Source: Octopus vulgaris (Eukaryota). From it: 64,000 nt of DNA. The notes beneath the pieces were generated by a model. The model saw nothing but the letters and a program-made list of their open reading frames with translations, searched no databases and was not told where the DNA came from. Location: contig OX597832.1 of the NCBI GenBank assembly GCA_951406725.2, forward strand, positions 46,314,001 through 46,378,000, read 5' to 3'. Position numbers and translations under genes: made by a program. Positions 9,145 to 63,017 of the stretch are shown here, piece after piece (positions within the stretch are counted from its first letter, which is position 1; each line of letters opens with the position of its first letter).

Positions 9145-9244
9145 NNNNNNNNNNNNNNNNNNNNNNNNNNNNNNNNNNNNNNNNNNNNNNNNNNNNNNNN
9201 NNNNNNNNNNNNNNNNNNNNNNNNNNNNNNNNNNNNNNNNNNNN
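9145..9244. other. Assembly gap (100 N)
   Basis: Run of n. Confidence 0.99.
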
Positions 9245-11334: not shown

Positions 11335-11396
11335 AGTGTTGAGCAGTCATTCCATCATTCTATCTTTACGTGTATGTGTATATATATATATACAAC

Positions 11397-11610
11397 ATGT
11401 GATCTCTTGAGCACCACCAGCAAAAATATTTTTTCCTCTGTCTTCCCTTCTTGGTATCTTTCCTTCTCCTTGTTTCCGACGAAGAGCTCCGCTCGAAACG
11501 TTAAACCCTCCTTCCCTTCTTTCCTGAGCGTCAATAATACTTTAATTGTTCCACGTCCTCGGGTTGCTGTGTTTTTTTTCTCTTTTTTTTCTGTGTTTTC
11601 TTGTTTGGAT

Positions 11611-11614
<4 letters not shown>
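11397..11614 (+). mobile_element. Family E element (hammerhead-bearing, in TA repeats); core variant CCGACGA
   Basis: Matches the copies at 15855, 27150, 42761 and 48249; ends GTTTGGATTAAC|(TA)n. Confidence 0.85.
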
Positions 11615-11662
<48 letters not shown>

Positions 11663-12216: not shown

Positions 12217-12817
12217 CAACATACACATACGTACGCAAGCGCGCGCACACACACGCACACTTATATTTAACGGAATATTTTACTAATAGATAATGGAATT
12301 TAGAAAACTGGAAAAGTTAGTGTCCTTACGAATATTATGTTGATATATTATCTCGATGTTAACTTACAAAAATGGCTGCCTTTTCTTTAACGTTTTCGGC
12401 CTAATAGTATTTAGTGTAAATCAATTTGCAGTGATATTAACTATGCAGAGCTATCCACACGATACTGCGCCAAAACAGTTTATAAACAAAAATCACAGAA
12501 TCACAAACTGACAAATAGCACTTCCCTGCATAACAATGAAATATTTTCGCACCACCAACTTCTTTATGAGGTGAAAATATTCTTTCTTTATGGAGGTGTT
12601 TGACAAGTTTATCTCAGTTTTAGTAAACATGTCAAATTGTTTGTCCCACTTTTCAATTCTCACAAATCCCTAGGTAAACTGGCGTCCGCCTATGAGTGAC
12701 AAAGAGTAAAGAGATATGAAATAAACGGTTTAGAGTAGGTCGGTGACGAAGCTTTTCAATGACAGAATCTTTTAAGGGTTTAGTGGGAGAATATTTGGAT
12801 ACAATTTACTGTATTAC

Positions 12818-13259
12818 TTAATTATAATGTGAGGTATACTTGCCATCTCAATATGGCTAACCACTAAGGGTGGGTGTTACTGTAGCTTGTAGCCCCAGGA
12901 GAACATCGTCTCAGCTGGCTTTAGGCACACTTTCTGTGCCCTTATGGTATTTGCAAAGGGAGGTCATCCTTCCCTCGTCAACCTAAGTGTTACGCACGGA
13001 CCTGAGTACAGGTCAGTACCTAGAAACTGCAGTCCGTGCGTATTACTTAGTTTGACGAGGGAAGGATGACTGACCTCCCTTTGCAAATACCGAAAGCATA
13101 CAGAAAGTGTGCCTAAAGCCAGCTGGAGACGATGATCTCCTGGGGCTACAAGCTACAGTAACACCCACCCTTAGTGGTTAGCCATATTGAGAAGGCAAGT
13201 ATACCTCACATTGTCGTGCAGTTACTGTTTATACCTCGGTCAGAGATTTAATTATAATG
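12818..13259 (+). mobile_element. Foldback insertion, Penelope-like terminal structure with 12-bp TSD
   Basis: Inverted arms 12826-13001 and 13032-13212, a 35-bp one-sided extension 13213-13247, and direct repeat TTAATTATAATG at 12818-12829 and 13248-13259. Confidence 0.8.
13002..13040 (+). ncRNA. Hammerhead-like motif (variant core) at the foldback apex
   Basis: CTGAGTA-c-AGGT cagt ACCT-a-GAAAC TGCA GTC-CGTGCG: stem II, GAAA, palindromic stem III ACTGCAGT and GUC triplet. Core position 8 is U instead of G. Confidence 0.6.
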
Positions 13260-14309
13260 ATTATAATAGATTAATAAATGCCCTTTCTTAGTTATTTAAA
13301 GTAGCAGATTGTATTGTTAAACCCACGATGTATATCGAACTGTGTTACAAGGAGTAGTATGAGAATTTATCAAACAGCTGTTACTTTTTAAAATGGGAAG
13401 TAAGATTGAAATATTATGTAATCAGTTAAATGAAGGTTTAATATTTAAATGGGAGCAACGCCAAAAATATTTTAAATTTTGTATGGTAAATATATCTCCT
13501 TGTTTCACATGATTTGAAGAATCGATGTGCTGTATCCCATGTTCAGCAATAAAATTAGTTCTAATCGAAGAAGGATTCAGATGAGAAATATTGTATTGCC
13601 CATGGTTGTAGAAAACGTTAAGAAAAAAGTGTGCTAAATCGTAGGAAAGCCATTTAGGTATTGTAAAATGTTTTGTTTCCCAAATACTCTGCTGATGAAG
13701 TAGTTGAAAGCGATAAAACGGATAACGTTTGCCTCGTGGAGAACTACTTTCCCATAAATCTGATTACTTAAAATTCAGTAAAACATTTTTGAGTGCTTTA
13801 CAGCGTGACATACAAAGCCATAGGTTTTCGTTGAATCGCGTCGGAATTGAGAAAGCAGAAGAGAAGCAGTTGTTATAAGAATGTATAAATAAAAATAAAA
13901 TTACAGGAAAGTAGAAAGGAGAAAGGGTAGAAATACGACAACAGATAGACAAATCATTTCTGAATTGAATATAGAATGTCTATAATCAATACACGCTTCT
14001 GCCGCAAGAGATATCAACTTATCGTTGGATATAATAAAGTGCTAGTCGATATGTTTCGTCCATATCTTTTGGCTTGTTTGTGTTACGTTTTTTAAGTGAC
14101 TACTGACTGTCACTAGGAGAATATATATAGATTTAACAATGTGTATATATGGACGTGTGTATATATGAGTATATGTTTATATGTAGATATGTTTGTTTTA
14201 TGGTACAGTTACACGTAAAAGCATATCTAAAATGTAGTATATTTTCAACAGCACAGCTATCTTTACATATTTATGTATATATGTATACATTTGTCTGTCT
14301 GTTTATCTG

Positions 14310-18815: not shown

Positions 18816-19210
18816 GTAGGAGTGGCTGTGTGGTAAGTAGCTTGCTAACCAACCACATGGTTCCGGGTTCAGTCCCACTGCGTGGCATCTTGGGCAAGTA
18901 TCTGCTGCTATAGCCCCAGGCCGACCAAGTACTTGTGAGTGGATTTGGTAGACGGAAACTGAAAAGAAGCCTGTCGTATATATGTATATATATGTATATG
19001 TGTGTCTGTGTTTGTCCCCACTAGCATTGCTTGACAACCGATGCTGGTGTGTTTACGTTCCCGTTACTTAGCGGTTCGGCAAAAGAGACCGATAGAATAA
19101 GTACTGGGCTTACAAAGTATAAGTCCCGGGGTCGATTTGCTCGACTAAAGGCGGTGCTCCTGCATGGCCGCAGTCAAATGACTGAAACAAGTAAAAGAGT
19201 AAGAAAGAGT
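18816..19210 (+). mobile_element. SINE family A (copy 1 of tandem duplication)
   Basis: Head lacks the first few nt; complete tail. Confidence 0.92.
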
Positions 19211-19493
19211 ATATATGTATATATATAATAATTATTATTTGAGGGAATAAAATCCAAACTTACAAGGAAAAAAATTCAATTTTAGAAATACTAAGTCAAA
19301 TTTCACACAATATAATATATATAAAATATATATATGCGCTTTTGTTATTTTTTGGTAATTTACTTAATCATTTACATTTTATTGTTATTTTAATTTTGAT
19401 ATTTCTATTATATGTAATTTTCTAGATGGTGTAATTTAATTGTTCATTTTGAAATGATAACAGGTGTTTTTTTTCTAATTTTATATATATATA

Positions 19494-19897
19494 GGCGCAG
19501 GAGTGGCTGTGTGGTAAGTATATTGTTTACCAGCCACATGGTCCCGGGTTCAGTCCCACTGCGTGGCATCTTGGGCAAGTATCTGCTGCTATAGCCCCGG
19601 GGCCAACCAAGTACTTGTGAGTGGATTTGGTAGACGGAAACTGAAAAGAAGCCTGTCGTATATATGTATGTATATATGTATATGTGTGTGTGTCTGTGTT
19701 TGTCCCCCTAGCATTGCTTGACAACCGATGCTGGTGTGTTTACGTCCCCGTCACATTAGCGGTTCGGCAAAAGAGACCGATAGAATAAGTACTGGGCTTA
19801 CAAAGAATAAGTCCCGGGGTCGATTTGCTCGACTAAAGGCGGTGCTCCTGCATGGCCGCTGTCATATGACTGAAACAAGTAAAAGAGTAAAAAAGAG

Positions 19898-19898
<1 letters not shown>
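19494..19898 (+). mobile_element. SINE family A (copy 2 of tandem duplication)
   Basis: Full head and tail; shares private variants with the 18816 copy. Confidence 0.92.
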
Positions 19899-19929
<31 letters not shown>

Positions 19930-20167
19930 AATTATTATTTGAGGGAATAAAATCCAAACTTACAAGGGAAAAAATTCAATTTTAGAAATACTAAGTCAAA
20001 TTTCACACAATATAATATATATAAAATATATATATACGTTTTTATTAATTTTTTGCAATTTACTTAATCATTGACATTTTATTGTTATTTTAATTTTAAT
20101 ATTTCTGTAATTTTCTAGATGGTGTAATTTAATTGTTAATTTTGAATTGATAAAAGGTGTTTTTTTC

Positions 20168-20247
<80 letters not shown>

Positions 20248-23123: not shown

Positions 23124-23489
23124 TAGTTAGTTAGTTAATTTGGCTCAAAAGCAAATAGCAAGGCCATGTAGGGGGACTTGGAGTTAAGTACAGGGTGGTG
23201 TTCATGTAAAGAGTTCAGGCCACTTGAGGTCAAGAGAGGCTTTGAACAAAGCGGTCGTCGGCATCTTCACCATCTCGTCTGGCAGCTTGTTCCAGGGATC
23301 CGCAACCCGGACGGAGAAAGCTCCTCTCCTTCGATTGAGATGAAATCGTCGCAGGTAGAGCTTTTCGGAGTGACCCCGCAGCCGACGCTCTGGAACAGGA
23401 GTGAAGAACAGCTCTTTCGAGAGGTTACACTTTCCGCTTATGATGTTGTGAGCAAGAATGAGATCACCACGGCGGCGGCGTTTTTCTAG
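23124..23489 (-). mobile_element. 5'-truncated CR1-type LINE: ORF2 C-terminus, short 3' UTR, (TAAC)n tail
   Basis: 23489-23202 translates without stops as LEKRRRRGDLILAHNIISG...RLRGHSEKL...FSVRVADPWNKLP...LFKASLD...*, the typical CR1 ORF2 end. Confidence 0.88.
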
Positions 23490-25596
23490 TGTATAGATGC
23501 AACACTGAATTTAGATTACAATCAACCAATTACTTCATCTCGTAAATTAAAAAAAAATCTGATGTTACTACGAATTAAATTTGGGAAATTTGAGTAATTT
23601 TAGCCAATCAACAGAAACGCGGTTTTAGAAGCTCGTTACCATGACAGCCGTGCTGTGTTGTGGTTCTCTGTTTACTGTGCCACTGTTGTCTATGTTGATT
23701 TTTCACACTTGATTCTTCACACCACGAGATTCTTTCACCCGATATTTTGTTTTAATTTTTCTCTATAATTACAGATAATTACGTATTTTTTACAAATAAT
23801 TACATTTTACCAAAAATAATTACATGCAAATAATTACATATTTGTTGTGCTTTTACTCTGTGTTAGTACTTTTACATATTTTTCATTTCATATATTTTTG
23901 GGACTCATTGACTCAGATAGCTGGATTTATGATTTCACTAGGTTAATTCTATTCATAAAAATTTTAATTTGGAGTATTACTTAAACCGTTAGCTTCACAT
24001 TTCAACAGCTCGACTAAAATTTAGCCCACGTAACAGGAACAGAGAGGGATATCATGGAACAGAGGAACTATGGATGATACAGCTAATTTGACACTACTTT
24101 TGAATATTCTGCGTGAAAAAACATTTTGTTGACCAGTGTTATTCTTATCGTAGTTTACAAATCCAAGCAAGAAAACTTTAGTCTACTTTAGAGCTTTGGA
24201 GACAGACGCCCCCTTTTCACACACACACACGTACACATACATTTACTTATATATTACTGATGTTCATAAATACATGGCAAGTATATATAATACTGAAAAA
24301 GCATAAACTTAACAGAAGCAGACAAATATATTAATATAGTATATTTTTTAAATGATTAAAAAATACTATGAATGAAGAGAGAAAAGAAACAGTAAGATGA
24401 TACATGTTGATTTTATTAGGTATTTCTGTTTATTTAGAAACCTACAATGAACAGGTCAGTCGCTAAACTATAAATTTCACAGGGTACAAACTTAAAGTTG
24501 TCAACGCTTCGCTAAATGCAGAAAATTTCTGTCTCGCTATTGACGCTATCGGCTAGAAAAATCCAGTGATTTCGATTTTTAAACCTCTGCAAAGTTTTTT
24601 CTCCATTTTCTTTCTCCACAACATCATACCTGCAAAGCAATGAGATTGGCAGGCTACATTATTATGGCCGATTTTCAGATTTTTACTTCCTTTTAAAAAC
24701 TGCCTATTTTGCGAATGACAAAAACTAGATCCGTTTTCCTTGCTGAATTGTTCGACAAAATCTCTCCAAATCTCATGCCATAATCGCACAAGTTAAAGCA
24801 AACTTATATTTGGTAATGATGGCTAAATAACTAGGTATATATTTAGATATATACGATCATATTTTAACGAAACTCAGAATGAAGTGCACTGCTTTGGTAT
24901 GATCGTCATCAAACTAAATTATGCTTTCGTCACTATTTTCACATTAATATGCATATGTCAACTGCCACTGAGATAGATGACTTTGCCGTTCATCCCTCGG
25001 GATCGATAAAATAAGTAGAATTTGAGTTATCTGCTAGCTTGCTCCCTCAAAATTTCAGGCCTTGTACCTATAGTGGAAACTAGTATTTATATATTGAATT
25101 ATTTGGCAATTGGCATTATCATTTATGCCATGATATGTACATAGGTTATTTGGGAAGGAACAGAGTATGATTATAATCTTTAGTTTCGTTTACGTTTTCA
25201 TGTCTAGCTTCAAGAGTTGCACGTCTAAGCAGAGAGAGATAGAGAGAGAGAGAAAGCGTGAAAGAGAGAGAGAAACAGAGGGAGATGAAAGAAGGAAGGA
25301 GAGAAAGGTGAAGAAAGAGAGTGAGAGCGAGAGAGTGAAGTTGGGAAAGATCTGATAACTGAAATTACGTGTCGGACTTAATTAGATTAATGCCATAAAC
25401 GTGAACGTTATAAAATCATTAGATAATTTTTGAAATGTGGCGATGACAGTAAAGATTTATCAAAGCACTATGACGTGTCTCTTGATTTTCCTTTTAGCAA
25501 TAAAGAAAAACAAAATTCACATTCAAGAGATTACGTCTGCTTTTGCTTTTTTGTTTAAATCATTGGACATCTAACTGTTAATATGATTACCAACGT

Positions 25597-26140: not shown

Positions 26141-27149
26141 CCTGATTATAAATAACTGATGTGATGGTGATAAATGTAACAACAATAAAGATAATATCAG
26201 TAATCAATTAAAATACGCAATATCAATATTATCAGTTCGTTTATGAGTTGTTTTCTGTTAATAATGTTGATATTGATATCGTTTGATGTTCGCAAATATT
26301 AATGATGCGACGACATGTTAATTTCTATAAATGTAGTAATGACTTGATATTTAGCCAAATATCTAAAGTATCCAAATAAATTTCATTTCGATTATAATAA
26401 TATTTTACAGTAGATTTTAATGAGCGAGATCTTCAACTCTTTGGTTAATGATATGCTTGGAGGTTACATGATTTATCACAGCATTCAATACTATGATCTT
26501 GTGAAAAATTTGACAGGTTTATGCTGCTCTGTAACCGGCGCGTAATTAAATGCAGTTTGAATTAGAATCGTAGCCACAATATGTATTTGATTCCTGTATC
26601 TAATTGCTTGTTTTTTTTTTCTTTTTTTCGCAATCTTGAAAATTTTCGAAAATGAAAAAATAAAGTCCTGAGAGTTATCATAAACCTTCAGTAATTGAAA
26701 GGATCTTACTATAGTTCACAAGATGTTTTATTATTGAACGCTATTATAAGTTTTCAACTTATTCCAATTGAAATTGGCCTTGAATACAATGAGATCACAA
26801 AACCTTCACGTAACACTATCCTCTGCAAAGGAGAATTTATTTTCCCATTAATGTCATGTTACTTGAAAGTCGATGAACATTGAAATATAATAAAAATTAA
26901 GCTTCTCCTTCTTGCAGAGCTCATTCGGCTTTATTTTAATAATCATAGCGTGTTTCAGAGGCAAATTCTGCCTTTACAATTGATATATCCCTGTCTGTTA
27001 TCGTGTTTATATGTGTCTATATATATATACACACATAACGTCAGCTTTTGCTTTTTCTTTACTCATTGGGCATGTATCTGTTAATATGATTACCGAAGAG
27101 CTTGCTGTGTATATATATATATATATATATCTATATATATATATATAAA

Positions 27150-27443
27150 GTTAATCCAAACAAGAAGGCACAAAAAAAACACAACAACGCTAGGACGTGG
27201 AACAAATATAGTATTATTGGACGCTCAGGAAAGAAGGAAAGAAGGAGGGTCCAACGTTTTGAGCGGAGCTCTTCGTCGGAAACATAGGAGAAGGAAAGAT
27301 CCAGAGAAGGGAAGACAGAGGAAAAAATCGCCAACGGTACACACGCGGTCACATTTTGAATGACCGGTAGGAATGTTGTCTATTGACTTTATTACGCATT
27401 CTGGCCACCGGTATGAAAATTTAGAGAAATTTTCTACCCTTAT

Positions 27444-37119: not shown

Positions 37120-37271
37120 AATTCACAGCGACTGCGAACCCACAAGAGTAAACAAGAGAGACAGAGACAGGCAGAAACAAAGAAAATGCCACTTGTATTT
37201 GAACACTATACAAATATTCTTTTAAAAAAACTTTTGTTTTAATGTTTCTAAATTTAATTGTTTAATTGTTA

Positions 37272-37307
37272 CAGTTGAAAATGTCACAATGACTGAAACC
37301 GGTACTG
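37272..37307 (+). ncRNA. Degenerate minimal hammerhead motif
   Basis: CAG-TTGAAAA-t-GTCA caa TGAC-t-GAAAC CG GTA-CTG: stems I and II pair and stem III is the palindrome ACCGGT; core differs from CTGAAGA at two positions. Lies in a ~240-bp island between TA tracts. Confidence 0.5.
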
Positions 37308-37359
37308 AAATGTTGTTTATAAAAATAATTTCAGCATTTTCTATCTTGACATTATTTTA

Positions 37360-42720: not shown

Positions 42721-42760
<40 letters not shown>

Positions 42761-42765
<5 letters not shown>

Positions 42766-42973
42766 AATGTGACCGCGTGTGCACCGTTGGCGATTTTTTC
42801 CTCCGTCTTCCCTTCTCTGGATCTTTTCTTTTCCTATGTTTCTGACGAAGAGCTCCGCTCGAAACGTAAAACCCTCCTTCTTCCCTTCCTTCTTGAGCGT
42901 CCAATAATACTATATTTGTTCAACGTCCTCGCGTTGTTGTGTTTTCTCTTCGTGTTTTCATGTTTGGATTAAC
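42761..42973 (+). mobile_element. Family E element with intact hammerhead core
   Basis: Flanked by (TA)n on both sides; ends GTTTGGATTAAC. Confidence 0.88.
42838..42872 (+). ncRNA. Minimal type-I hammerhead ribozyme motif
   Basis: GTTT-CTGACGA-A-GAGC tcc GCTC-GAAAC-GTA-AAAC: stem I GTTT/AAAC, CUGANGA, stem II, GAAA, loopless palindromic stem III ACGT, GUA triplet. Confidence 0.75.
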
Positions 42974-43020
<47 letters not shown>

Positions 43021-48201: not shown

Positions 48202-48248
<47 letters not shown>

Positions 48249-48250
<2 letters not shown>

Positions 48251-48458
48251 TAATCCAAACATGAAAACTCAAAGTGAAAACACAACGCGAGGACGTGGAA
48301 CAAATATACTATTATTGGACGCTCAGGAAGGAAGGGAAGAAGGAGGGTTTTACGTTTCGAGCGGAGCTCTTCGTCAGAAACACAGGAAAAGGAAAGATCC
48401 AGAGAAGAGAAGACGGAGGAAAAATAATCGGCAACGGTACACACGCGGTCATATTTTG
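48249..48458 (-). mobile_element. Family E element with intact hammerhead core
   Basis: Between TA tracts; matches the other E copies. Confidence 0.88.
48347..48381 (-). ncRNA. Minimal type-I hammerhead ribozyme motif
   Basis: Reverse complement is identical to 42838-42872 (GTTTCTGACGAAGAGCTCCGCTCGAAACGTAAAAC). Confidence 0.75.
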
Positions 48459-48496
<38 letters not shown>

Positions 48497-60300: not shown

Positions 60301-60447
60301 GAAAACAAATATTGAAAATATATTCCATTAGATCTTGAAATCAATGAGAGAGAAAATAAAAGAATTCTACGACAGTGTTTTCTAAAGATAAAGCTTATAC
60401 GAATAAGAAATGTAAAAGCGTAAAGAGAAAGTATATATATATAAATA

Positions 60448-60546
60448 CGACAGTACATATTCTAAAATTGGAATGATACAGAGAAGGTTAGCATAGCCCC
60501 TGCTCAAGGTTGACACGCAAATTCGTGAAGCGTTCGAACATGTTTT
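60448..60546 (+). pseudogene. U6: U6 snRNA retro-pseudogene, 5'-truncated
   Basis: CAGTACATATTCTAAAATTGGAATGATACAGAGAAGGTTAGCATAGCCCCTGCTCAAGGTTGACACGCAAATTCGTGAAGCGTTC...TTTT matches metazoan U6 (ACAGAGA box, AGC triad). About 8 substitutions versus vertebrate U6 as I recall it; first ~10 nt missing. Confidence 0.95.
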
Positions 60547-62777: not shown

Positions 62778-62822
<45 letters not shown>

Positions 62823-63017
62823 CTTAGAGCGAGCTATAAACAGTAGCTGCAACACATCGTGGCGTATAGTTGCCATTAAAATATGGCTAACCCCTAAGGG
62901 TGGATGCTACTGTAGTTTGTAGCCCCAGGAGGACACCTCCTCCACCTGGCTTTAGACACACTTTCTGTGCCCTATCAGTATTTGCAAAGGGAAGCCATCC
63001 TTCCCGTCTTCAACTTA
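62771..63017 (-). mobile_element. Single-arm relative of the 12.8-kb foldback family, ending in a TAA/TTA tract
   Basis: 62821-63017 aligns to the reverse complement of about 13047-13247, including the extension segment. Confidence 0.85.

Follow-up and report, generated by a model that had tools for sequence, protein, structure and literature searches.

Inverted truncated copies with tails of 30–40 bp are typical of Penelope-like elements (PLEs) (PMC8557442), and for Pen2a of A. vaga an inverted pseudo-LTR (pLTR) that is 37 bp shorter is described together with a 31-bp tail and a 9-bp target-site duplication (TSD) (PMC3846280). The hammerheads described for PLEs have a short palindromic stem III, and motif pairs on opposite strands lie 100–700 bp apart. 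For the element of the anole it is reported (PMC11167929) that the purified PLE protein cuts and extends both strands with a preference for ATT targets, that two start sites bound the tail, and that ribozyme cleavage is dispensable. Animal non-LTR retrozymes are probably moved by PLE proteins (PMC7229834; bioRxiv 10.64898/2026.07.22.740005). Penelope families have been described in an octopus genome (PMC13282606), which may bear on the naming of the family at 12826–13250 considered here. The way in which PLEs build their inverted ends and the role of their hammerheads are still open (PMC11167929, PMC8557442). In titles and opening abstracts, among which subscription papers are under-represented, neither a mapping of PLE inversion points against the cut site nor twin priming by PLEs was found. 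In the twin priming of LINE-1, priming from both target strands is proposed to give an inversion with microhomology at its junction; the inverted part in LINE-1 is a different stretch of one RNA, whereas here the same stretch is present in both arms.

The insertion compared with these systems is located at 12818–13259 of the window, that is, of the whole stretch of 64,000 nt that was analysed. Its parts, and a second copy of the same repeat, are the following.

12818–12829 (+): left copy of the TSD, 12 bp, AT-rich; its last 4 nt are common to the inverted arm
12826–13001 (−): tail-less repeat end in inverted orientation, 176 nt; on the outside it ends like the tail-less 3' end of the family
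12844–12846 (−): ATG close to the repeat end, present in the copy at 62.8 kb and mutated in the right arm (13192–13194)
13002–13034 (+): degenerate type I hammerhead core, with the predicted cut between 13034 and 13035
13032–13212 (+): repeat end in direct orientation, 181 nt, in which 4 nt are duplicated (13067–13070)
13213–13247 (+): one-sided tail, 35 nt, or 38 nt counting the 3 nt common to the TSD
13248–13259 (+): right copy of the TSD, 12 bp
62821–63017 (−): second member of the family, a single arm with tail, located between (TAA)n and (TA)n repeats

Pen2a/Pen2 of A. vaga (PMC3846280; see PMC8557442 for the general scheme) share with this locus the head-to-head copies, of which the inverted one is about 35 nt shorter, the one-sided tail of 30–40 nt, a duplication that is AT-rich and of comparable length, a junction palindrome and a possible ORF start within the repeat end. 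Unlike Pen2a/Pen2, the insertion contains no ORF, and it may belong to any of the PLE clades (Penelope/Poseidon, Neptune or other). The short palindromic stem III and the sense orientation in the repeat are as in the described PLE hammerheads, whereas 13002–13034 has neither an intact CUGANGA box nor the G10.1-C11.1 pair, and no hammerhead core is present in the inverted arm. Two 3' ends separated by the tail, and AT-rich targets, are also features of PAc/Poseidon of Anolis carolinensis in vitro (Frangieh et al. 2024, PMC11167929); in PAc, however, the ORF runs from stem II and the tail is placed about 90 nt past the cut, whereas here every frame from the core is interrupted and the distance from the cut to the start of the tail is 178 nt. 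Animal non-LTR retrozymes (PMC7229834 and bioRxiv 10.64898/2026.07.22.740005) resemble the locus in being short non-coding repeats with a type I hammerhead. The locus differs from them by its inverted arrangement with a tail and by the absence from the window of tandem units each carrying a hammerhead.

Structure of the insertion and its repeat family

The sequence-only reading of this DNA had described inverted arms of ~176–181 bp with scattered differences, a 30-nt loop, a 35-bp extension on the right only and a 12-bp direct repeat at both ends, and all of these are borne out. The arms differ in 15 of 181 aligned columns (10 by substitution and the others in gaps of 1 nt and 4 nt), their outer 87 nt being 98% identical, and the loop between them occupies 13002–13031. 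The 12-bp direct repeat is exact, is found in the whole window at these two places only, and the probability of a 12-mer recurring at a fixed position by chance is about 1e-6. Microhomology is seen at both target junctions, with 4 nt on the left, inside the TSD, and 3 nt on the right. Since the latter 3 nt overlap the right TSD, the length of the tail is given as 35–38 nt; contigs of the family also reach 3 nt into the right TSD, with loose ends at 13250. In RNA folding, the sole structure to stand out was the hairpin of the two arms (z = −5.3 for each strand).

Public contigs from 4 of 24 runs, representing three organisms, were mapped to 12500–13600 at 80% likeness (5214, 4310, 1845 and 132 contigs per run). 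In the three deeper runs the summed depth on the arms exceeded that on the flanks by about four orders of magnitude, a figure that is a ratio of depths and no copy number, and the repeat family is very abundant in the three organisms. Two discrete 3' ends are evident from the loose ends of the contigs: the tail-less end at 12827 (22, 36, 16 and 2 contigs in the four runs) and the end of the tail at 13250 (60, 54, 32 and 4 contigs). Beyond 13250 the contigs have a continuation in common, which places the tail inside a longer element; the letters beyond both ends are mixed and AT-rich. The copy at 62821–63017, which is 80% identical to the insertion over 197 nt (E = 2e-46), is truncated on its 5' side at a point about 17 nt past the hammerhead cut, and the earlier view of it as a single-arm relative that marks a dispersed repeat is upheld. 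A 22-letter pattern of the family had no match in metagenome, viral or prokaryote contigs.

The suggested kinship with Penelope-like insertions, based on inverted repeats with a short one-sided tail, gains from the two discrete 3' ends and from 17 more junctions of the same kind. The insertion behaves like a PLE stub, and its membership of the PLEs is likely by analogy of architecture, in a window where no linked RT gene accompanies it: among 150 of 188 filtered ORFs of the window, no relevant Pfam match to a PLE RT or GIY-YIG domain was obtained, and two matches below the cut-off were not to an RT. It is most likely a known kind of genomic debris with the published PLE architecture of an inverted pLTR plus tail. 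Short motifs of the window were absent from the supplement of PMC8557442 and from the searchable supplement files of PMC4209133. As one among very many stubs of known architecture, the single locus matters little.

The ATG at 12844–12846 (−) is, judged from the sequence, a possible start of the element's ORF. Its frame is open through the tail both in the right arm and in the copy at 62.8 kb, a peptide of 29 aa covers the repeat end and the tail, and position 13193 is T in 98% of the family depth in run X1.

No empty site was seen among the 15 of 28 joints listed for the contigs mapped to 12500–13600. Flank contigs of organisms A and B enter the element by 19–25 nt at both junctions, which is less than the 31 letters of the bridging rule, and they are consistent with a real insertion common to both organisms. 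The flanks have diverged by about 3% across a split (11 other letters in 375), and the insertion is therefore older than that split.

Proposed origin of the two arms

We consider it reasonably probable that the insertion represents two head-to-head copies of the 3' end of a very abundant repeat, most likely a PLE pLTR, formed by two opposed target-primed reverse transcriptions. The identity of the locus as a PLE-type stub is held with high confidence, and the step with two primers is given roughly even chances. The stub is dead. In the proposed course of events, a GIY-YIG endonuclease would nick both strands of the AT-rich target about 12 nt apart, one target 3' end would prime at the end of the tail through a 3-nt match, and the other would prime at the start of the tail through a 4-nt match; these places correspond to the two start sites of the anole RT. 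Both cDNAs would be copied from uncut RNA. Synthesis of one would end early, within the palindrome of stem III, and that of the other where the hammerhead core begins, and a 2-nt match with one additional base would join them in the middle. The turn beside the GUC is probably due to the position of the hammerhead near the 5' end of the repeat, or to pausing of the enzyme, and not to a cut in the RNA.

The differences between the arms comprise eight mutation events, of which five are derived in the right arm and one in the left, the other two being ambiguous. Two templates for the two arms would account for five of the six polarised events falling in the right arm; the 5:1 ratio of events gives P = 0.22 and a count by bases gives P = 0.04, which is suggestive, not significant. 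Furthermore, because the insertion is older than the ~3% split of the flanks, age alone could account for the differences.

An alternative that we rate as possible, if on the unlikely side, is that a single cDNA was extended through the hammerhead, folded back in the palindrome of stem III, where 2 nt match, and served as its own template, with resolution by the endonuclease at the boundary of the tail. Palindromes at the inversion junctions of PLEs have been interpreted in print as a mark of self-priming (PMC3846280), and here an 8-bp palindrome is present at the inversion junction; the near identity of the outer 87 nt of the arms also agrees with it, and tail-less ends could arise by resolution with the endonuclease (PMC8557442). 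Two observations speak weakly against such self-copying: the 4-nt target match of the left junction falls on the second 3' end of the family, as priming would give, and the arms differ at 13092–13093, where each of the letter variants is found in other copies. The abundance of the family would permit a genome-wide test of the two-primer reading, which we prefer, against self-copying of one cDNA.

The hammerhead-like core and the inversion point

The 3' half of the core (13023–13034) is composed of GAAA, the palindromic stem III (13026–13033) and GUC, with G12-A13-A14, the A15.1-U16.1 pair and H17 all present. In the 5' half the CUGANGA box is broken. Position 8 is a U in one parse, and in an alternative parse 13003–13005 corresponds to N7-G8-A9 while the CUGA box (C3–A6) is lost; a loose end at 13017 in run X10 is compatible with both. 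Stem II consists of 4 bp (13010–13021) flanked by C and A, without the closing G10.1-C11.1 pair, and no stem I adjoins C3 and the cut site directly, its pairing partner being the inverted arm. Since the inverted arm pairs with the GUC itself and would thereby sequester it, cutting is predicted not to occur. The hammerhead at 13002–13034 is degenerate and, as judged from its sequence, probably inactive. Thus, of the hammerhead layout proposed earlier, the GAAA, the palindromic stem III and the GUC stand, the CUGANGA box and the closure of stem II do not, the U at position 8 applies to one parse only, and the suspected inactivity of the core is retained as probable.

Searches with Rfam models gave no hammerhead at the gathering score in the window and none at E ≤ 10 at the locus, and a strict hammerhead descriptor did not match 13002–13034. 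A relaxed descriptor, which was fitted post hoc to 13002–13034, matched seven times per 4 million random bases (1.75e-6 per base) versus five times on the two strands of the window. Folded alone, the core was unremarkable (z = +0.3 to +1.0). Two weak Rfam matches at the locus, with E about 5.6, were regarded as chance. Fuller versions of the motif, both read by eye, are found in relatives. In one contig the match to the left arm breaks off at 12997 and gives way to a hammerhead that has GAAA, GUC, a palindromic stem III of other sequence and, closing stem II, the G10.1-C11.1 pair, its CUGANGA box being degenerate; in another contig of the family an intact CUGAUGA box adjoins 12994. The strand of the hammerhead motif is that whose 3' end bears the tail, an orientation also found in PLE pLTRs.

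According to the sequence-only reading, reverse transcription ended near an RNA end defined by the ribozyme and then switched template, and the inverted arm ended exactly at the complement of the GTC (13032–13034). The arm does end at that complement, but this point is 3 nt beyond the scissile bond and not at the cut. With cut RNA as its template, an arm would stop opposite 13035. The complement of GUC is still part of the inverted arm, which extends 3 nt past the scissile bond, while the direct arm extends 32–33 nt past the cut site; as both arms hold bases upstream of the cut, both templates are read as uncut, and a 3-nt extension of the inverted arm would arise by chance in 1 of 64 cases. 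The postulated RNA end finds no support in this respect.

The expected tie between breakpoints and the GUC fared no better. Among the joints listed there were 17 other left-to-right (head-to-head) junctions with 34 breakpoints from +1 to +182, taken as the ends of alignments and uncorrected for intervening letters; the same-arm joints 12851–12933, 12854–12924 and 12892–12973 were left out of the count. Three of the 34 breakpoints were within 5 nt of the cut versus 1.7–2.3 expected (P = 0.25–0.42), and their distribution did not differ from uniform (Kolmogorov–Smirnov P = 0.70) in a test limited by the source contigs, which are short, biased to old diverged copies and less sensitive near the hammerhead. 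Neither 13001 nor 13035 showed a pile of loose ends among the 24 of 624 rows listed. Within the limits set by the short contigs, this lack of a relation between breakpoints and the GUC is an outcome that the sequence-only reading had itself named as refuting it. A link of the inversion point to ribozyme cleavage is not supported.

That the RNA was cut at the GUC, with the reverse transcriptase running off there and switching template so that the ribozyme fixed the inversion point, is accordingly rated very improbable. The stop of the inverted arm only 3 nt from the cut site, and the presence of an alignment end within 5 nt of the cut in 3 of the 17 other junctions, are what this explanation would predict; however, the bases upstream of the cut in both arms oppose it, the number of near-cut breakpoints is at chance level, and the three near-cut ends are partly forced because the reference arm stops at 13001. 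One of these three junctions continues straight across a hammerhead, and another is followed by a CUGAUGA box. Moreover, for the anole element it is reported that none of the RNA reads has either end at the cut and that ribozyme mutants insert normally (PMC11167929). One junction ends 7 nt upstream of the core and the direct arm here likewise starts just before it, so that the approximate 5' end of the repeat may be where the hammerhead lies, with the cut itself unused. The result is a useful negative, in that adjoining a GUC does not show ribozyme-directed truncation.

A DNA-transposon MITE, or a fold-back element with terminal inverted repeats (TIRs), had been doubted from the outset, and this judgement is supported by the one-sided tail, the scattered breakpoints and the variable 5' truncation, although a subfamily of ~117 bp may be an exception to the lack of fixed ends. 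The long inverted arms would suit such an element, as would the short TIR-like ends of a frequent subfamily with loose ends at 12888 and 13150; against it, 35 nt are located outside the inverted repeat on one side only, the TSD is 12 bp, the inner breakpoints are spread over 180 nt and the second copy of the window is single-armed, which leaves little room for this explanation. An assembly or library artefact in the form of a fold-back chimera would agree with the fact that no contig spans the whole insertion, but it is scarcely credible in view of the 15 differing columns of the arms, the exact flanking duplication and the flank contigs of two organisms that enter the element at both junctions.

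Possible short tail-capped units and other features of the window

At 12888 and 13150 the loose ends show one and the same 16-nt motif in opposite orientations, and they were found in all four runs (37 + 17, 36 + 17, 14 + 6 and, in the last run, 3 contigs). The motif is similar to the tail end in inverted orientation, and the letters after it are mixed and AT-rich. These loose ends mostly measure just 9–12 nt, and there are few flanks behind the subfamily; within the window the motif had two matches at 3 mismatches versus 1.1 expected. The ends suggest a common unit of ~117 bp, equivalent to 13134–13250, with short inverted ends, which may move as a whole. The further proposal that this unit, capped at its 5' end by 12–16 nt of inverted tail end and amplified in at least three organisms, is a MITE-looking parasite moved by a PLE enzyme and primed at tails on both strands is doubtful. 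On this proposal the fold-back stubs of the family would not all be dead ends, the arms of the longer stubs would stem from two RNAs, and two-strand priming in vivo would be on record at thousands of junctions. The abundance of the family would also permit testing whether short tail-capped units are moved intact by transposition.

The window has a high AT content and abounds in microsatellites and SINE-like repeats. An unrelated repeat of ~270 bp with a central minimal hammerhead is present at 42728–42996 (+), 48205–48493 (−), 27110–27362 (−) and 11373–11658 (+). Its hammerhead has a bulged base after A9, the G10.1-C11.1 pair, a palindromic stem III and a UA cut; two copies keep an intact core (at 42842 and 48377), and in the remaining two it is altered. 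All four copies end in (TA)n and start about 85 nt upstream of the core, so that the cut site does not set the 5' end of this repeat. An isolated hammerhead-like motif was also observed at 37270–37310 (+), with a core of the U3/A8 type, a palindromic stem III and an extra base before GAAA.

A copy derived from U6 snRNA at 60439–60544 (+; 83 bits) abuts a SINE-like repeat that starts at about 60546, and it looks like a U6 chimera or pseudogene. The frame at 23205–23510 (−), which had no Pfam match, presumably resembles the C-terminal end of a CR1/L2-type LINE protein. The window further contains an assembly gap of 100 N at 9145–9244 and a tandem duplication of ~680 bp with SINE-like repeats (18818–19493 and 19499–20185), the two copies of which are 92% identical.
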